DNA from: a virus
Taxonomy: Duplodnaviria > Caudoviricetes
DNA: 35,672 nucleotides
Direction: 5' to 3' (one strand)
IMG/VR virus record: IMGVR_UViG_3300038530_000810
Location: 1-35,672 of that record
Part shown: positions 17,541 through 35,672 of the stretch, in pieces
Numbering within the stretch: the first letter of the stretch is position 1
Layout: every line of letters begins with the position of its first letter
The notes under the pieces: generated by a model
The model's database searches: none
Told to the model about the DNA's origin: nothing
The model's input: only the letters and a program-made list of their open reading frames with translations
Made by a program: the position numbers and the translations under genes

Positions 17541-17912
17541 ATGCTGCCATACAATATATTATTTAAAATAGGCTCTAAAGCAGTAGGAACTTATATGAAC
17601 AGACGAGCAGAGAAGAGTGAACGTAAACATCAAATTGCTCTTCAAGAGATGCAAACTGGTAACGAAAGAGCAAAAAGAAATGGATCATTAATATTAGATT
17701 TAGTGTTAGGTGCATTTATATTAGCACCATTAGGTATACTTGCTTATGCTACATTTTATGGTGATATGGCTATGTTAAAAAAAGTAGAGTTTTATTTTGA
17801 GCAACTTAAAAATATACCAGAGGTTTATTTATATTTAATTTTTATTGTAGTGGGTGGCAACTATGGAATATCTGTTACTAATTTATTGTCCAATAAAAAA
17901 TTTAAAAAATGA
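17541..17912 (+). CDS. Holin-like membrane protein
   Basis: 123 aa; two hydrophobic segments; basic C-terminus. Confidence 0.5.
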   Translation: MLPYNILFKIGSKAVGTYMNRRAEKSERKHQIALQEMQTGNERAKRNGSLILDLVLGAFILAPLGILAYATFYGDMAMLKKVEFYFEQLKNIPEVYLYLIFIVVGGNYGISVTNLLSNKKFKK

Positions 17913-18142
17913 CAATAGCTGCCTTTGATCCCTCTTTATTATCTAACTATGAACAACCTAAACATTTATTACATTTTCAATGGAAAAATTCTGATACTAA
18001 AATTTATAGATATGCTTTAGTTGAAGTAATTGATATAACTAAAATAGATCATAAAACAAAAACTAAACAAGATGAGAAAGGATTAAAACAAAAGGATATA
18101 TGGTTAAAAAAATATTCGTACAACAATACAGTAAAAGGGTAA
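17909..18142 (+). CDS. Hypothetical 'LHFQW...YRYALVE' protein, homologue of 35040..35264
   Basis: ATGA overlap with the holin-like gene; about 42 of 69 aligned residues identical to the 35040 ORF by manual alignment. Confidence 0.75.
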   Translation: MTIAAFDPSLLSNYEQPKHLLHFQWKNSDTKIYRYALVEVIDITKIDHKTKTKQDEKGLKQKDIWLKKYSYNNTVKG

Positions 18143-19776: not shown

Positions 19777-20021
19777 TGTCAAAAGGTTTACGATCTTGGG
19801 TAAGAGCTAATTGGGTTGACATTGCTAATCCTAAGAAAGGTGGTGGCTTTCCCAAGTGTGGTAGGAGCAAAGGAGAGAAGAGACGTAACTATCCTAAATG
19901 CGTACCTGCTGCAAAAGCTAGAGCTATGACACCTGCACAAAGACGTGCTGCTGTATCAAGAAAGAAAACTGCTGAGAGACGACCAAGAAAAGGTAAGAAA
20001 CCTAATTATGCTAGAACTTAA
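19776..20021 (+). CDS. Basic protein, DUF5872-like ('GL..W....WVDI...CGRS...YPKCVP')
   Basis: 81 aa; motif recognition; last gene of the late operon. Confidence 0.55.
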   Translation: MSKGLRSWVRANWVDIANPKKGGGFPKCGRSKGEKRRNYPKCVPAAKARAMTPAQRRAAVSRKKTAERRPRKGKKPNYART

Positions 20022-20547
20022 TTAGTTCATTATACTCATCCCAAATAGTTTGAGCAGGATCCCAATAATATTTTTGTTGTAGTTTCATTTGTATAGCATA
20101 GTTTACTGTGGTGTGGTCTTGACCAAATATTTTTCCAATACTTGATAAGTTCATTTTATATTTATCATATAAAATATTTTGACAGATGTTTCTTGATCTA
20201 ACTACATCTCTTGATCTTACTTTACCAAGTAAATCTTTTTTACTTACCTCATATCTTATACAAACTTTGTTAATTATAGAATTAAGTATATCTTGTTTTG
20301 GCTTCGAGAACTGATAAAGAATTGGTCTATTAACCCAACTATATTTACTAATTGGTTTTTGCTCTGTTAGTTTGATACCTTTCTTTTTATTTTGTTGAGC
20401 TTGTTTGTAACCATTTATAAAACCATCTTCATATAATTTTTGTTCAGCATCTGTAAAAAGATACCATGCCTTTTTATGAACATAGATAAAATAATTGTTG
20501 CCTTTATCTTTGATATGTTTTTTGCAAATTGTTTTTAATAGAGCCAT
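20011..20547 (-). CDS. Protein with DnaA C-terminal (domain IV) DNA-binding domain
   Basis: 'DLLGKVRSRDVVRSR...LSSIGKIFGQDHTTVNYA' matches the DnaA signature; no AAA+ domain. Confidence 0.8.
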   Translation of the reverse strand: MALLKTICKKHIKDKGNNYFIYVHKKAWYLFTDAEQKLYEDGFINGYKQAQQNKKKGIKLTEQKPISKYSWVNRPILYQFSKPKQDILNSIINKVCIRYEVSKKDLLGKVRSRDVVRSRNICQNILYDKYKMNLSSIGKIFGQDHTTVNYAIQMKLQQKYYWDPAQTIWDEYNELIKF

Positions 20548-20590
20548 AGAATCCCCTCGGTCTTTGTTGTTTTTTTTATAATTTTAATGC

Positions 20591-20749
20591 TTATCGCATC
20601 AACATTTCTTTAGTTCTTTCAATCTTCCAAATCAATCTAAAACTATCTTTCTTATACTTCTTAGCTTTATCTTGAGTCTCAAGAAACTTGCTATGTTTCT
20701 TTGCTTGCAAATCCCTGAGTTTTTGGAGTCGTTGTCGTAACTTGTCCAT
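20591..20749 (-). CDS. 52-aa basic helical protein (MDKLRQRLQKLRDLQ...), not in the ORF track
   Basis: AAGGAG RBS; open frame read manually. Confidence 0.6.
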   Translation of the reverse strand: MDKLRQRLQKLRDLQAKKHSKFLETQDKAKKYKKDSFRLIWKIERTKEMLMR

Positions 20750-20912
20750 CCTTCTCCTTTTTCACTTTGGTGAAGTCTATCTTTACTCCAGTAACTTCAC
20801 ATTCTACTAACTCTCCCTGTGCGTTGGGATCAGCAGCCTTTTCAACACTCTCAAATCTTTCAGACAAAATAAAATTTGCCTCGCCTGATTTAATTCTAAT
20901 ATAATTACTCAT
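20691..20912 (-). CDS. Hypothetical protein
   Basis: 73-aa ORF; AAGGA RBS; overlaps its neighbours. Confidence 0.55.
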   Translation of the reverse strand: MSNYIRIKSGEANFILSERFESVEKAADPNAQGELVECEVTGVKIDFTKVKKEKDGQVTTTTPKTQGFASKET

Positions 20913-21204
20913 CTTTATCCTTTTTGTCTATAGTTTTTTTATGTAGGTTTTTAGCCATTTTTGTATAGATTTCCAAGTCATCATAGTTATCACTCTTAAA
21001 TTTTTTTGTAGTCCTAAATAATTTTAACCCCATCATAAGTTGCGCAACTTGATGTGGTTGTATATCATCTTTTAAAATATCATGCAAAATAACATTGAAT
21101 ATTATTGCAAGTAATCTGAAATTCTCATCATAATCACCATAATCTTTTTGGCGATCTGCCATAATTTTTTTTATTTTTTGTTCGTTGAGGTCTATTGTTG
21201 TCAT
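20905..21204 (-). CDS. DUF6378-like protein
   Basis: 'RQKDYG..DENF...QVAQLMMGLKLFR...DNYDDL..Y'. Confidence 0.65.
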   Translation of the reverse strand: MTTIDLNEQKIKKIMADRQKDYGDYDENFRLLAIIFNVILHDILKDDIQPHQVAQLMMGLKLFRTTKKFKSDNYDDLEIYTKMAKNLHKKTIDKKDKDE

Positions 21205-21213
21205 AAATTAGGG

Positions 21214-21276
21214 GATGAGGCAGAGAAAACAACTAAAGAGAGAGCCGAAAGGATGACTCAAAAACTCCGCCTCATC
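21214..21276 (-). ncRNA. Putative structured antisense sRNA (C4-like architecture)
   Basis: 12-bp outer stem GAUGAGGCGGAG/CUCUGCCUCAUC and 5-bp inner stem, each with a G-U pair on the minus strand; unpaired segments complementary to several early-gene RBS regions. Confidence 0.6.
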
Positions 21277-21278
21277 AG

Positions 21279-21310
21279 ACATAAGTCTTATAAATAATTA
21301 CAACTTATGT
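21279..21310 (-). other. Hairpin immediately 5' of the putative sRNA
   Basis: ACATAAGT/ACTTATGT 8-bp stem plus inner TGTAA/TTATA. Confidence 0.45.
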
Positions 21311-21315
21311 TCTTG

Positions 21316-21624
21316 TTATTTAGCATAAGAACCCGGTTTTGCATAAGGTTTTTTGTATGCAAATTTTGGTGTTCCTCCACCTCCTGAACCTTGAGAGGGA
21401 GATTTTTCATTTGGTGTTAAACAAATTGTCAAACCACCTGTCGGTTCACCATTCTCAGCTAATTCGTCAAAACCAGCTTGGCTGTACCATTTACCATTTA
21501 TCTCAACGCCAATAGTCCAGTTCTTATCTGGTCTTTTTAAGTTTGGCGGTGCAACATAACTTGGTTGATTAGGTGCAGTTCTTTTCTCGTTTGGTATGAG
21601 TTTAATATATATTTTTTCACCCAT
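21316..21624 (-). CDS. SSB-like (DUF736-type) protein
   Basis: Likely start 21624 (AAGGAG RBS); 'NEKR...QPSY...INGKWYSQAGF'; follows exonuclease and annealase-like genes. Confidence 0.45.
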   Translation of the reverse strand: MGEKIYIKLIPNEKRTAPNQPSYVAPPNLKRPDKNWTIGVEINGKWYSQAGFDELAENGEPTGGLTICLTPNEKSPSQGSGGGGTPKFAYKKPYAKPGSYAK

Positions 21625-22282
21625 TTTTTTTTGCTCCTTGATTGTTAAGTTGTAACATCCTAACGTCATAACGATCCATCAAATCTCTATAAACCGCAGG
21701 ATGTCTTGTTAATGCAACATTGAACTCTTCCGCAAAGGAAACATTTTTAATGTAATGTAACCTCGTTGGATGTTTTGCTTTTGATATAAGTTCAATGATG
21801 TGTTCTACTGGTGTACCCAACAACTTAACTTTTGCGAGAGATGCTATATAAGTCATTCCCGATACAGAGTTAGGATGTTCAATTACATCAGCACTTCCTC
21901 TTTCTTTTAAAGGTATGCCTATGTGGTCATACTCCTCTTTTGAGGTAATGTTATCATCCATTACACCAAAGAAAGATAAAGCTCTTGATAAGCTAAAAGT
22001 TTCAGCACACTCAAATGAATTGGGTTTGTTTCTGAAAACTTTAGCATGTCCGGTTGATAGTATTAAACCATCTTTATCTTTTATTTCTGTGTAGCCGACA
22101 TAAAAATCATCAAAAGATTTGATGCTAGTTTTTATACCTATCTCGCCTACAAACTCTTCAATAAAATATTTGATTTTACTTGCAGCTTTGATGCAACTTT
22201 TACCTGTCTCTGGATCCATGTAAGTTCCATCTTCTTTGCACTTATCTACTACTTTTGCTATTCTTAATTTTAAATTTTCCAT
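21617..22282 (-). CDS. Putative single-strand annealing protein (Rad52/Sak-like)
   Basis: 'STGHA...FECAETFSLSRALSFFG'; lies after the exonuclease. Confidence 0.5.
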   Translation of the reverse strand: MENLKLRIAKVVDKCKEDGTYMDPETGKSCIKAASKIKYFIEEFVGEIGIKTSIKSFDDFYVGYTEIKDKDGLILSTGHAKVFRNKPNSFECAETFSLSRALSFFGVMDDNITSKEEYDHIGIPLKERGSADVIEHPNSVSGMTYIASLAKVKLLGTPVEHIIELISKAKHPTRLHYIKNVSFAEEFNVALTRHPAVYRDLMDRYDVRMLQLNNQGAKKNG

Positions 22283-22312
22283 AATATTCCTTTAGTTGTT
22301 TTTTTCATTTAT

Positions 22313-22399
22313 TTAAAATGGTAACAAACCCCATACTTTTTGTGCATAAATAAAAGTATAAGTGCCTATTACTTTTCCTTTGTATATTAACCAAGACAT
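22313..22399 (-). CDS. 28-aa aromatic/hydrophobic peptide (MSWLIYKGKVIGTYTFIYAQKVWGLLPF), not in the ORF track
   Basis: AAGGAG RBS four nt before the ATG; fills the intergenic gap. Confidence 0.55.
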   Translation of the reverse strand: MSWLIYKGKVIGTYTFIYAQKVWGLLPF

Positions 22400-22425
22400 G
22401 TTTCTCCTTTTTGTTTGTTGTTAGT

Positions 22426-23322
22426 TTATCCCCACAATTTTTTAATTATTTGTAGTTGTTCTTTACTTGCATCATTCATGGTCCAATGTGTAATGTCAGG
22501 TCTTTCAACTAACTCAGCCATACGCATTGGATCACCATTACTTAATAAAAGTAATCTTTGTATAGTCTTAGCCTTCTTAATCATTTGGTCTAAGTTATAA
22601 TCTAAATAATCTTTTGATAGTTTTTCATGTGTGTCATCAAAAATAATAAAGTCTTTATCGTTTGCGTAAAATAAAAATGGAGTCTTGTTGCTAGCCTTTT
22701 TATAAAAGGCAACTTGAGGTATGTTCTCTTCATCTGGTTCTTTTGGTAATGTTTGAGTATATATTTTTAAATCACCTTTAATAAATTTTGCAGTAGGTGG
22801 TTTTGTTTTACACTCAGCAAAATCATAATCGGTTTCAAAATCCACACGACCAGTTATTCCTATAATTAAATCTTCAAGTATCATGCTTACATATCTCTCA
22901 CATGTTAGTTCTTTATCTTGAAATATATTTTTAACCGCAGCTAAAATGTTTGTGATTGTTTCATGTATGTGTTGTTCTATTTGTTCTCTTATCTTTTTAT
23001 CGTTATCATCGTATGGTTCTTTAAGATATTTATTGTATTCAAATTGAAATACTTTTTTGTAATCTCTTTCTAATATTTCTTTTCTATCAGCTCCCTCAAA
23101 ATAATACTTACCAATTAATTTTTGCGCTACATTATTAGCACAGCTACCAAAGCCAAGTTTATATCTCTTCTTGTCCTTTCTTCTTTGATCCTGTTTTCTA
23201 CAAAAATAATCTACTATCCACATTGAGATAGGTTTGTATCTTTTGGAGAGCTGAGAAAAACTAAAATGATCTAAGCCTTCGCCACCTGATAAGAGCTTAA
23301 ATATTTCGTTTGGTTTTTTCAT
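22426..23322 (-). CDS. PD-(D/E)XK exonuclease (RecB/lambda-exo-like)
   Basis: 'HFSFSQL', 'GRVDF...ECKT', 'QVAFY'; AAGGAG RBS. Confidence 0.75.
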   Translation of the reverse strand: MKKPNEIFKLLSGGEGLDHFSFSQLSKRYKPISMWIVDYFCRKQDQRRKDKKRYKLGFGSCANNVAQKLIGKYYFEGADRKEILERDYKKVFQFEYNKYLKEPYDDNDKKIREQIEQHIHETITNILAAVKNIFQDKELTCERYVSMILEDLIIGITGRVDFETDYDFAECKTKPPTAKFIKGDLKIYTQTLPKEPDEENIPQVAFYKKASNKTPFLFYANDKDFIIFDDTHEKLSKDYLDYNLDQMIKKAKTIQRLLLLSNGDPMRMAELVERPDITHWTMNDASKEQLQIIKKLWG

Positions 23323-23378
23323 AGTTGTTTTACTCCTTATAGTCTATTATATACCAGTTTGTCTAGTGTTTTTTTTTA

Positions 23379-23407
23379 TTGATTTAACTTGCCAATATGG
23401 CTATAAC
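23379..23407 (+). promoter_or_regulatory. Sigma70-like rightward promoter
   Basis: TTGATT-17 nt-TATAAC in the divergent intergenic region, upstream of the RBS at about 23418. Confidence 0.5.
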
Positions 23408-23426
23408 AAGGCAACCGAAAGGATTT

Positions 23427-23651
23427 ATGAGACTCAAAGATTGGATAAAAAAGAAAGGTTATAGTTATTCAGAAACAGCAAATGTTTTGAAAATACATAA
23501 TTTTAACCCAGCAACAAACATTATTCGTTATGCCAAAGGTGATCGTATACCTCACCCAGATTTTATGTTGAAGATAAAAAATGGCACGAACAATGAAGTT
23601 CAACCAAATGATTTTTATGAAGAGTACTGGGAAAAAAATAAAAAAGTTTAA
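23427..23651 (+). CDS. Cro-like HTH transcriptional regulator
   Basis: Start 23427 after GAAAGGA; 'MRLKDWI...RYAKGDRIP...TNNEVQPNDFY'; first gene of a divergent operon. Confidence 0.7.
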   Translation: MRLKDWIKKKGYSYSETANVLKIHNFNPATNIIRYAKGDRIPHPDFMLKIKNGTNNEVQPNDFYEEYWEKNKKV

Positions 23652-23892
23652 ATACAAAAGGGTCAAAATATACTGGCAAGATATTGTATCAAACCCGGAA
23701 TGGATGACTTTAAATAAAGCAAAAGATCAAGTCTATTCTTGGTGTGAAGATACCGGGTATCTGTTATTTAAAGATTCAAGAAGAGTAATCATTTTTGCAT
23801 CACATAGTTTTGATGATGATGGCGAGCTTACAGTTGGCAATATAACTGTTTACCCTAGAGGAGTTGTTAAAAAGATTGAGAAACTACAATGA
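23581..23892 (+). CDS. Conserved phage hypothetical protein (start uncertain)
   Basis: 'IYWQD....W...C...GYL...YPRGVVKKI'. Confidence 0.55.
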   Translation: MARTMKFNQMIFMKSTGKKIKKFKYKRVKIYWQDIVSNPEWMTLNKAKDQVYSWCEDTGYLLFKDSRRVIIFASHSFDDDGELTVGNITVYPRGVVKKIEKLQ

Positions 23893-24071: not shown

Positions 24072-24659
24072 GTGAGTGTTAAAAAATATAAAGTAAAAAT
24101 ATGTAATAGAAAGGATGTAAAAGACTTCATAGAAACTTGGCATTACTCTAAAAATATTAATGGTCTTAAATCTAATTATTGTTTTGCATTACTTGATAAC
24201 AATAATCTTATTGGTGCTATTATGTATGGACAAATTGCTATGGCAAATGTTTGGAAAAAATATGTATCAAAAGAAAAAGATTTAATTGAACTGCGTAGGT
24301 TATGTTGCATAGATAATACACCCAAGAATACTGAAAGTTATTTTATAGGTTTTACTTTGCGTTGGTTAAAAAGAAACACAGATCACACTAAAGTTATTAG
24401 TTATGCTGATGAAACTTATAATCATCAAGGTATTATTTATAAAGCTAGTAATTTTAAACATCAAGGCATGACAAATAAAGGTAAGGTTATTGTTTATAAT
24501 AACAAACTATATCATGACAAAACTATTAGAACTAAATATAATGGTAAGATTAAACCATACGCACAAAGAATTAAAACTGCATTAGATAATGGGAAAGCAT
24601 ATTACAAAGACACACTTGGTAAACATATTTATATTTATGAATTGAGGAAACATGGCTAG
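24072..24659 (+). CDS. Mom-family (GNAT-fold) adenine-modification protein
   Basis: 'WHYS', 'ELRRL', 'PKNTES', 'ISYAD...HQGIIYKASNF'; GTG start. Confidence 0.75.
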   Translation: MSVKKYKVKICNRKDVKDFIETWHYSKNINGLKSNYCFALLDNNNLIGAIMYGQIAMANVWKKYVSKEKDLIELRRLCCIDNTPKNTESYFIGFTLRWLKRNTDHTKVISYADETYNHQGIIYKASNFKHQGMTNKGKVIVYNNKLYHDKTIRTKYNGKIKPYAQRIKTALDNGKAYYKDTLGKHIYIYELRKHG

Positions 24660-26969: not shown

Positions 26970-27127
26970 TATTCCCCCTCGTTTAGCCAGTTAGGCAAGC
27001 CATAGCTCATAGCCATGACCCCGCCAAATGTTATTAATAAACCCACAACAAAATCAAAATGAATTGCTAAGATAAAACCTAAAAAGGCTGTAACAAAGCC
27101 AAGCAATAAACAAAGTAAATTTTTCAT
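26969..27127 (-). CDS. 52-aa two-TM protein, not in the ORF track
   Basis: MKNLLCLLLGFVTAFLGFILAIHFDFVVGLLITFGGVMAMSYG...; GGGAG RBS; ATGA overlap. Confidence 0.6.
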   Translation of the reverse strand: MKNLLCLLLGFVTAFLGFILAIHFDFVVGLLITFGGVMAMSYGLPNWLNEGE

Positions 27128-27618
27128 TTTATTAGCTCCCTTCTTTTTTTATTTATCCAAAATTTAGGGTCTAGCCTGTAGTTATTTGCAGCTAGCTCCT
27201 TTTCAGTTACAATGACAAAGTTAGTACGTTCACAGTTGCAAGCCTTCCTATATGGCAAGGGGTCAACCATTGAACCGATATTATTATTACCTGTGGCTTC
27301 AAACTTATTATAAAAATCTTCAATATTATTATAAGTTGCTTGAGCTGTTACAACTTTAAAAGTTCCTGAAATTAAATACAGTTCTTTTAAAAAGTCCCTG
27401 TAACCATGCCAACAGACAGCGTTTACTTTTTTTCTTGATCCATCTTTATTTCTTGAAAATCCTAAACGCTGATATTTTTTAGATGTTCCAAGTTTTAATT
27501 TAACTCTATGACAATTACCTGATACTTGGTTCATATCTAAATCAATTCCAAGTTTACCAGCTATAGACCATAAGCTACTCTTAAATTGCCAAATGTTTTT
27601 AGTGTTATATATTTTCAT
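27124..27618 (-). CDS. Hypothetical early protein ('AVCWHGYRDF', 'NIGSM..P....ACNC')
   Basis: 164 aa; GAGG RBS; ends in an 'NYRLDPKFW' motif. Confidence 0.6.
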   Translation of the reverse strand: MKIYNTKNIWQFKSSLWSIAGKLGIDLDMNQVSGNCHRVKLKLGTSKKYQRLGFSRNKDGSRKKVNAVCWHGYRDFLKELYLISGTFKVVTAQATYNNIEDFYNKFEATGNNNIGSMVDPLPYRKACNCERTNFVIVTEKELAANNYRLDPKFWINKKRRELIK

Positions 27619-27635
27619 TTTTATACCTCATAGTT

Positions 27636-27751
27636 GTTTTATGACTTTGAACGTCAAAAGAATTTTATTAACACCAAATTTCAATCCTTTGTTATCCTAT
27701 CACCATCAAAAGTCGGGTGTTGGTTTAAAATCACATTCAAAGTCATATAAC
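27636..27751 (-). other. Long hairpin in the leader of the 27618 gene
   Basis: TATGACTTTGAA (27640-27651) / TTCAAAGTCATA (27736-27747), plus inner ATTTTA/TAAAAT and AACACC/GGTGTT stems. Confidence 0.6.
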
Positions 27752-27967: not shown

Positions 27968-27992
27968 AAAAAACAACAAGGAGTAATATAAA

Positions 27993-28271
27993 ATGATTAA
28001 ATCATTACAAGACCTTAAAAAAGTAAATAAATTATGGTTCTCACCGAGTAATAAAAAGTTTTTTAATGATATAAATTATAAACTTTTAACCGGTGGTAAA
28101 TCAAAAAATAAGTTTTTAATTCAACACACTTACAGATTTTCAGATATGTTTGAAGGAGTTAAAAAAGCTGTTTATTTAATTAAACCAATTACAATAGATG
28201 GCAAGATATTACCAAGCATTCAAACAGTTGAAACAATAGAGAAAGTTAAACAATACTTAAAAATGAATTAA
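27993..28271 (+). CDS. Hypothetical early protein
   Basis: 92 aa; AAGGAG RBS; 'WFS....KFF' motif. Confidence 0.6.
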   Translation: MIKSLQDLKKVNKLWFSPSNKKFFNDINYKLLTGGKSKNKFLIQHTYRFSDMFEGVKKAVYLIKPITIDGKILPSIQTVETIEKVKQYLKMN

Positions 28272-34549: not shown

Positions 34550-34999
34550 ATGGCAAATTCAATACAACAAGCGAAAATTGCTGCTACTCCTTCTGAGAAA
34601 GTAAAGACTAACGAACTTGCAGGTAGAGTTCGAGTAGCTTTTGCTGAGTACGAAGCGAGTGCAGAACAATCAACTATTCATATGTTTAGTTTACCAAATG
34701 GAGCTAGAATCCTTGGTGGTAGACTTGCACATGATGCACTAGGTTCATCAACTACATTATCAGTTGGTCATAACGCATACATTGATTCATCAGGATCAAC
34801 AGTAGCTCTTGACGTTGATGAGTTCAAAGCGGCTGCTTCTTCAGCATCTGCTTCATCTGCTGCTATTGCAACAACAATAGCTTTAGGTGAGAACTCAGTT
34901 GTGAACGCTGATAAAGATGGTATCCCAGTTTCTGTAACTATTGCAGGAGCTAATGGTACTGGAACTATTCAGTTGCACATGACTTATGTTATAGACTAA
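34550..34999 (+). CDS. Capsid-adjacent virion protein (possible decoration protein), allele B 3' end
   Basis: 149 aa; GAGGAGG RBS; 'LPNGARI' motif; lies between the capsid gene and the terminator. Confidence 0.65.
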   Translation: MANSIQQAKIAATPSEKVKTNELAGRVRVAFAEYEASAEQSTIHMFSLPNGARILGGRLAHDALGSSTTLSVGHNAYIDSSGSTVALDVDEFKAAASSASASSAAIATTIALGENSVVNADKDGIPVSVTIAGANGTGTIQLHMTYVID

Positions 35000-35009
35000 T
35001 CAATAATTT

Positions 35010-35039
35010 AGGTGGGGGAGCAATCCCCCATCTTTCTTT
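35010..35039 (+). terminator. Intrinsic terminator (allele B)
   Basis: AGGTGGGGGA-GCAA-TCCCCCATCT followed by TTCTTT. Confidence 0.75.
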
Positions 35040-35264
35040 ATGACAAGAGCTAGATTTGACCCAAGACTCATAGATATTTACAAAGAGCCTAGACTTTTGT
35101 TGCATTTTCAATGGGGAAACGATAATAAGATTTATAGATATGCTTTAGTTGAAAAAATTGATATAGGTAGTATCAACGAATTAACAAAGCAAAAGAAAGA
35201 TGAACTAAATCTTTCTAACGAGGACATTTGGAAAAAATATGGCATCAATAGTAGACATCTGTAA
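35040..35264 (+). CDS. Hypothetical 'LHFQW...YRYALVE' protein, present at this locus only in allele B
   Basis: 74 aa; homologous to 17909..18142; absent between 318 and 382. Confidence 0.7.
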   Translation: MTRARFDPRLIDIYKEPRLLLHFQWGNDNKIYRYALVEKIDIGSINELTKQKKDELNLSNEDIWKKYGINSRHL

Positions 35265-35672
35265 TGGAGCATTAAATCAACTAGGAGCAACTACTATTCT
35301 TTCACTTACAGAAGATTCAAAGAACGCAAGACTTTGCAACGCAAGATATACACAAGTTAGAGACGCATTATTTAGATCACATCCTTGGAACTGTTTACAG
35401 AAGCGAGTAGAACTTGCAGCAGATACAGCTACACCTGCTTGGGGTTTTAGTTCACAATATACTTTACCATCAGATTGTATGAGACTACTTCGTATATTAG
35501 ATTTTGATTCTAACTACAAAGTAGAAGGTAGAAAAATATTAAGTAACGCATCAAGCATGAAAATTTTATATGTTTCAAGAGTTACTGATCCTAATGAATA
35601 CGATGAATTACTAAGAGAAACTATATCGGCTGCATTAGCAGCGGACATTGCATACGGAGTTACATCTTCAAA
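35239..35672 (+). CDS. Tail tubular protein A, allele B (truncated by the window end)
   Basis: MASIVDICNGALNQLGATTILSL...; 29 differences in 144 aa from 382..963. Confidence 0.85.
   Translation, partial: MASIVDICNGALNQLGATTILSLTEDSKNARLCNARYTQVRDALFRSHPWNCLQKRVELAADTATPAWGFSSQYTLPSDCMRLLRILDFDSNYKVEGRKILSNASSMKILYVSRVTDPNEYDELLRETISAALAADIAYGVTSS

Follow-up and report, generated by a model that had tools for sequence, protein, structure and literature searches.

A conserved hairpin in the early gene block of HTVC010P-type phages and its predicted pairing with early leaders, including that of a DnaA-domain gene

A 63-nt hairpin in the early gene block of a SAR11 phage carries a pyrimidine-rich loop in which 23 bases can pair with the leader of a DnaA-domain gene on the same strand. 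The DNA analyzed (35,672 bases, hereafter the window) belongs to an HTVC010P-type phage, with tail, portal, capsid, and terminase genes recognized by PHROGs. Within this lineage, the DnaA-domain leader ranks among the best predicted targets of a conserved hairpin that likely has multiple targets; it is not a universal, dedicated two-box target. With confidence a little above even, we favor the interpretation that the hairpin is a multitarget RNA directed against the ribosome-binding sites of early leaders, with the DnaA-like leader among its strongest targets in this lineage.

Genomic context

All 21 phage records with DNA matches to positions 19900–23700 were Pelagibacter phages, with HTVC203P, HTVC034P, and HTVC010P at the top. 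Among 19 matched records, temperate subgroup II isolates were absent. On the minus strand, the order of the block is nuclease, putative annealing protein, a 102-aa gene, a 111-nt gap, DUF6378, two small ORFs, and DnaA_C. PMC8477408 (Du et al.) names this block the early region, and it describes HTVC010P-type phages as extremely abundant and as having no RNA or DNA polymerase.

The DnaA-domain gene (minus 20011–20547, 178 aa) closes the block. Its product contains domain IV only (residues 89–153; Pfam PF08299, E 7.7e-16; PDB 1j1v_A, E 8e-6), and DnaA boxes are not enriched in the window (5 versus 7.8 expected). The conserved 102-aa gene (minus 21316–21624) lies directly upstream of the hairpin and served as the anchor for locating the hairpin in relatives; it had no match in a Pfam search and may be SSB-like, judging from its position and the acidic/aromatic tail of its relatives. 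The putative single-strand annealing gene (minus 21617–22282) is named after the annotation of relatives, and the putative nuclease gene (minus 22426–23322) also belongs to the block. The divergent 74-aa gene (plus 23427–23651) is called Cro-like provisionally, on account of its position and weak HTH_3 matches (E 0.03–0.05) in two relatives, with none for the window protein.

Several other features of the window were recorded. A Mom-family DNA modification gene (24072–24659; PF25680, E 8e-34) lies in the divergent block and is unannotated at that place in the isolates examined. Between the nuclease and annealing genes lies an ORF of 28 codons (minus 22313–22399) that has an SD of its own; it had no match in a Pfam search, and its DNA shares 88.5% identity with a region left unannotated in HTVC104P, a pelagiphage of a different type. 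The end of the window (34682–35666) repeats its start (1–809) in diverged form, with 93% identity over 354 nt and 76% over 432 nt and a 74-aa ORF (35040–35264) in between; this likely reflects the overlapping ends of two strains of a circularly permuted genome. An 83-nt stretch (17993–18075 and 35121–35203, 75% identity) is common to this ORF and to another small one at 17909–18142.

Structure and conservation of the hairpin

The hairpin (minus 21214–21276) consists of a 12-bp stem, P1 (arms 21276–21265 and 21225–21214), closing a 39-nt pyrimidine-rich loop (21264–21226). Within the loop, a 5-bp inner hairpin, P2 (minus 21242–21259), presents in its 8-nt loop AUCCUUUC most of the anti-SD-like box b′ (AUCCUUUCGG, minus 21245–21254). 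Box a′ (GUUGUUUU, minus 21226–21233) is single-stranded and adjoins the 3′ arm of P1. The minus strand folded better than all 200 shuffles (z −4.5), and the plus strand also folds (z −3.5).

Among 341 related sequences, 324 had the upstream gene and the gap, giving 169 distinct gaps. Stems of at least 12 bp were found in 156 of the 169 gaps, compared with 30 of 507 shuffles, and P1 was 12–14 bp long in 154. The presence of a stem of at least 9 bp in all 169 gaps was dropped as evidence because 285 of the 507 shuffles also reach 9 bp. The stem sequence varies with the pairing kept, which is descriptive in that the stems were picked for pairing. Strand-neutral scoring of 50 distinct 12-bp stems gave 508 Watson–Crick, 77 G-U, 2 A-C, and 13 other positions; the excess of G-U over A-C identifies the mRNA-sense (minus) strand as the folding one. 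Two alignments were left out of the pair counts, one because two of its rows were wrongly oriented and the other because of register shifts.

The 60 distinct loops (one mis-called) are 19–70 nt long and 77% pyrimidine. They share CCUU (60/60), CCUUUC (48/60), a U-run at the start (59/60), and GUUU at the end (59/60). A pattern scan of viral contigs found 118 loci, 66 of them with the stem, and 57 of these 66 were beside the same upstream gene; the other 52 had neither. The scan of genome contigs found one locus, on a phage contig inside an archaeal MAG. This hairpin-bearing HTVC010P-type contig (PBPJ01000001.1) is in a MAG labeled Woesearchaeota, probably by misbinning.

P1 ends 8–17 nt before the following ATG in 164 of the 169 gaps. 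In the window, this is the start of the DUF6378 gene (minus 20905–21204), 9 nt past P1 and without an SD. An SD-like sequence between P1 and the following start was present in only 40 of 168 gaps. Immediately 5′ of P1, the window has another hairpin, which is AU-rich (minus 21277–21312); it also occurs in one relative (L037) and is absent from most clades.

No Rfam family matched the hairpin at the gathering score in the window or in seven related loci. Scans for promoters (15 versus 17.5 expected) and terminators (2 versus 1.7) were at chance, and no promoter of the hairpin itself was found. Hammerhead and K-turn readings were rejected by eye, as GAAA is missing after the stem in the former and the GA order is wrong in the latter, and a 14-codon plus-strand ORF across the loop has no counterpart in relatives. 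A published description of the hairpin was not found in the literature, supplements aside, and large catalogues of candidate RNAs may list the motif; PMC12753301 deals with other phage types.

Pairing with the DnaA-domain leader

The leader of the DnaA-domain gene (minus 20573–20545) reads AAAACAAC AAAGA CCGAGGGGAT TCT ATG. When it was co-folded with the hairpin loop, box a (AAAACAAC, minus 20566–20573) formed 8 bp, followed by a bulged A, 5 bp with AAAGA (minus 20561–20565), a 5-nt loop-out, and 10 bp with box b (CCGAGGGGAT, minus 20551–20560), including two G-U pairs. The SD-like GAGGGG (20558–20553) lies within the 10-bp helix, 5 nt ahead of the ATG. The 8+5+10 pairing and the burial of the SD, both put forward in an earlier sequence-only reading, were thus reproduced from the sequence and the co-fold. 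The loop and the leader are on the same strand and 653 nt apart (21226 to 20573), in agreement with the distance of about 650 nt given there; the single transcript that it assumed is suggested by gene order and strand. The same reading took the two A-to-G changes in box b, which become G-U pairs, as a sign of RNA pairing. These changes are little informative because they also improve the SD, whose function alone would predict them. The conclusion itself, that a minus-strand RNA and not a DNA repeat is concerned, is upheld by the G-U excess in the stems.

The duplex energy of leader and loop was −24.3 kcal/mol and the ensemble binding energy −16.3 kcal/mol; the opposite strands of leader and loop gave a pairing energy of −12.7. 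Binding was matched by 12 of 1000 dinucleotide-shuffled leaders and by 22 of 1000 shuffled loops. In binding to its own loop, the DnaA leader ranked first of the 57 listed starts of the window; start lists were taken from annotation tables, and that of the window contains one wrong start (25968). The leader ranked 17th under a plain anti-SD probe, whose sequence may differ from the host 16S tail, and 4th to 16th under the loops of 10 other phages; its rank with its own loop therefore goes beyond SD strength alone. In a duplex scan of the whole window, it was the best non-self site, and it came second on ensemble rescoring.

Other predicted targets in the window

The leader of the Cro-like gene contains a perfect box b (CCGAAAGGAT, plus 23415–23424) and, being on the other strand, is reachable only in trans. 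The leader of the annealing gene matches box a′, together with its extension, exactly over 13 nt (minus 22290–22302). Copies of box a also occur just ahead of the ATG of the nuclease gene (minus 23324–23331) and in the leaders of two further ORFs, 27124–27618 (minus 27633–27640) and 27993–28271 (plus 27970–27977). In all, AAAACAAC has nine copies in the window versus 4.4 expected, a number reached by 4 of 100 shuffles, and of the eight copies outside the hairpin, five are no more than 30 nt away from a start. Three occurrences of the pattern CCGARRGGAT were counted (hairpin, DnaA leader, and Cro-like leader) versus 0.04 expected; the pattern was derived from the first two, so that one match is independent.

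Ensemble rescoring, which covered the top 70 of 5,932 scan windows by duplex energy, ordered the sites as the Cro-like leader (−21.0), the DnaA leader (−19.5), a non-start site (−19.4), and the annealing-gene leader (−16.6). The Cro-like leader is thus the best-scoring site genome-wide, and three of the four best rescored sites are early-region starts. Among 43 pairs of loop and Cro-like leader, only 8 have loop complementarity at the two bases flanking the SD.

DnaA leaders of relatives

The sequence-only reading had found both target boxes in the DnaA leader and suggested a check of their conservation before related DnaA genes. A dedicated two-box target conserved across relatives was not supported. 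Among 133 distinct loop/leader pairs, box a reached at least 7 bp in 96 and box b at least 8 bp in 45, and both did so in only 23; other early leaders gave equal or better matches. The DnaA leaders of relatives are generally laid out with box a ahead of a G-rich SD, and the a-then-b order appeared in the co-folds of every clade shown. Changes that disrupt pairing, which that reading had named as evidence against itself, were encountered in part: GTAGGGGATCT, the core seen most often (in 40 of the 104 distinct leaders), puts U opposite U in box b. In the metagenomic loci, automatic start picking mis-called some leaders, and the counts there are lowered by it.

The ranks of the DnaA leader in 10 isolates were 1, 6, 8, 8, 10, 10, 11, 12, 12, and 13 among 56–69 starts; the isolate in which it ranked first was Skadi-5 (1 of 58). 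Only HTVC010P passed a shuffled-leader test at the 5% level (9/200), and the best loop sites in the isolates were mostly the leaders of small early ORFs. At 13 loci of clades D, E, G, and H, the DnaA leader ranked 1–14 among all scan windows (1, 5, 1, 3, 14, 6, 6, 5, 14, 12, and 4 at the 11 listed). A z score of −2 or lower was obtained for sampled pairs of clades F (4/4), G (2/2), H (2/2), E (3/4), and I (2/4), and by no sampled loop/leader pair of clades A, B, C, D, and J. Long DnaA-leader duplexes of different sequence were found in other clades (about 21 bp in L057 and about 20 bp in L083; −22 and −21 kcal/mol in L037 and L353). The DnaA leaders of L010, L012, L057, L083, and L090 have a small hairpin of their own between boxes a and b, with a GUUG/CAAC-type stem and a UGCAAA-type loop, which joins the boxes or hides a second AACAAC.

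Over 10 loop clades, DnaA leaders preferred their own loop (p = 0.01; coding control, p = 0.76), as did the leaders of the nuclease (p = 0.00025) and annealing (p = 0.011) genes. Over the same clades, such a preference was absent in two other leaders (p = 0.79 and 0.94) and in five coding controls (0.24–0.76). Binding to non-cognate loops averaged −10.9, compared with −12.4 for cognate loops. Seven swaps between sister clades gave −3.3, −3.0, −0.6, +0.3, +0.7, +1.4, and +2.0 kcal/mol, with the cognate pair favored in three of the seven. Covariation is therefore not general, and the clade-level p values are optimistic, reflecting partly shared ancestry. In one sister clade, the same loop faced leaders ranging from −6.5 to −20 kcal/mol, some of their starts being mis-picked. 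In the DnaA protein tree, members of hairpin clades B, C, I, and J are intermingled; DnaA genes are exchanged between hairpin clades.

The early-strand leader type

Leaders of the window and 10 isolates (11 genomes) were compared between the early strand (160 leaders) and the rest (508). AAAGGG was present in 20 early-strand leaders and in none of the others; GAAAGG in 33 and 13, and AAAAC in 63 and 59, respectively. GGAG was rarer in early-strand leaders (18/160 versus 110/508). A leader variant, GAAAGCGAG, recurs among early leaders of L177, L178, L179, L181, L028, and L029; it was seen in eight early-strand leaders and one of the others.

In 9 of the 11 genomes, the loop bound early-strand leaders of its own genome better than opposite-strand ones; a plain anti-SD probe also preferred early leaders in 6 of 11. 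Among six clades with whole genomes, the loop's preference for early leaders of its own clade was matched by 23 of 720 permutations. The opposite-strand leaders of the same clade, of which every third was used, were disfavored (701/720). This permutation result is driven by the clade of the window.

Proposed mechanism

The loop is the reverse complement of the early-leader type (AAAAC ... GAAAGG/AGGGG ... AUG), held open by the 12-bp stem. Here, we outline how a multitarget anti-ribosome-binding-site RNA of this kind might work. The hairpin would be transcribed as part of the early mRNA, and, protected by its stem, it would likely outlast the decay of this mRNA and accumulate over time. CCUUUC, displayed in the loop of P2, may seed on SD sequences, with GUUGUUUU gripping the A-rich standby region. 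Loading of the 30S subunit would then be blocked with no need for a dedicated chaperone. Such delayed negative feedback would lower the early proteins, including the DnaA-box-binding protein. A closed loop at an internal mRNA site cannot wind a 23-bp duplex, which is over two helical turns. It is therefore likely that each box forms a short helix of its own, or that pairing follows the opening or cutting of P1. Action would be chiefly in trans, given that the Cro-like leader, as a target, is encoded on the opposite strand; for the DnaA leader, cis action is conceivable and would not be needed.

More tentatively, the hairpin could be an RNA timer for the early-to-late switch. After its release, it would mask the early leader dialect and silence the DnaA-domain, Cro-like, and recombination genes together, as well as the early genes of superinfecting relatives. 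HTVC010P-type phages are described as having no RNA or DNA polymerase (PMC8477408), and a self-targeting RNA against ribosome-binding sites would provide control without a protein. The window offers an unusually clean test pair in the 63-nt hairpin and its 23-nt match in the DnaA leader; in addition, a leader of the opposite strand matches perfectly over 10 nt and so allows action in trans to be told apart from action in cis.

Alternative explanations

The alternative that survives best, although we regard it as unlikely, is that the pairing is a by-product. The leader would be an ordinary strong start, A-rich with an SD, and the pyrimidine-rich loop would be kept for another job, so that pairing would arise between all loops and leaders of these kinds. 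The job might be to bind a protein or S1, to direct processing or confer stability, or to help in cis the gene that starts 8–17 nt past P1 without an SD. The narrow length range of P1, its regular distance from the ATG, and the scarcity of SDs between them suit such a role. Non-cognate binding that nearly equals cognate binding, the failure of 9 of 10 isolate DnaA leaders to beat shuffles at the 5% level, and the outcome of the sister swaps are also in line with it. DnaA leaders conserve AGGGGATC, which can be read as an extended SD at the normal spacing, and this is compatible with a by-product as well. However, the match extends past the SD core, with CCGA, AAAGA, and box a following in correct order, and a second leader also has CCGA. 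The restriction of AAAGGG to early leaders and the long clade-specific duplexes also speak against a by-product.

The version of the sequence-only reading, a dedicated c4-like switch with boxes a and b acting on the DnaA-domain gene in cis or in trans, appears improbable. It would account for the first rank of the DnaA leader in the window and in Skadi-5, for the low z scores in clades E–I, and for the a-then-b layout of the co-folds. Such a switch is at odds with the few pairs in which both boxes are long, with the five clades that gave no sampled pair at z −2, and with the better sites that most isolates have in other early leaders. The perfect box b of the Cro-like leader and the exchange of DnaA genes between hairpin clades also count against it.

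We think it quite improbable that the main targets are foreign, namely host mRNAs or early genes carried by superinfecting phages of the HTVC010P type, with self-pairing incidental. Non-cognate DnaA leaders are bound almost equally (ranks 1–39), as cross-reactive exclusion would have it, and the c4 RNA of P1 is an immunity RNA (PMC8198154). Against this stand the slight preference for own early leaders and the lytic nature of the sampled group, described in PMC8477408 for members in which integrase is absent. Finally, an inverted repeat or operator at the DNA level, common to the hairpin and the leaders, could explain the perfect box b copy at 23415 on the other strand and is nevertheless highly improbable, as the strand asymmetry of the stems largely refutes it, the matches stand at SD distance from start codons, and the spacing between boxes varies freely.

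Comparison with known systems

Our preferred reading, a multitarget anti-ribosome-binding-site RNA, was compared with three known systems. The c4 antisense RNA of phages P1 and P7 has a characteristic box layout, a cloverleaf fold, and RNase P processing. The hairpin resembles it in having two short boxes and in being predicted to block expression downstream. In the window, boxes a′ and b′ have their targets in order further down one operon, with both boxes long in 23 of the 133 relative pairs. Like c4 (PMC8198154), the hairpin is a phage RNA upstream of a target in the same gene block. The genes icd and ant belong to the c4 context (PMC8198154), whereas the neighbors here are DUF6378 and DnaA_C in a lytic-type phage. 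The fold also differs, one large loop closed by a 12–14-bp stem taking the place of the cloverleaf, and there are several targets, one of them on the opposite strand. The Rfam C4 model had no match at the gathering score in the window and seven related loci, and it was not among the three matches at E ≤ 10 in 20400–21500.

NfeR1/αr14 (Cuckoo) of Alphaproteobacteria is Hfq-independent, has many targets, and occludes the ribosome-binding site (PMC10746234). It shares with the hairpin an unpaired anti-SD motif under variable stems. NfeR1 has three hairpins, each with CCUCCUCCC; here, in contrast, a single hairpin with CC(C)UUUC, a GUUUU box, and a U-run was found (CCUU in 60/60 and CCUUUC in 48/60 loops), with no CCUCCUCCC-bearing series of hairpins and no Rfam match. 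It also differs in that the RNA lies inside a phage early operon and matches the leader type of the phage itself.

RsaE and other sRNAs with the UCCC motif in Staphylococcus aureus use a C-rich seed that binds the SD and blocks the initiation complex, and RsaE is Hfq-independent (PMC2790875). An unpaired C-rich seed aimed at the SD is common to RsaE and the hairpin. In its predicted fold, the hairpin has a conserved, unpaired C-rich seed under variable stems, and it is complementary to several ribosome-binding sites. RsaE differs in being chromosomal, with its own promoter and terminator and host metabolic targets, and the hairpin has no sequence or family match to it. The hairpin is a member of none of these systems; it would resemble NfeR1 and RsaE in its predicted working and c4 in its placement.
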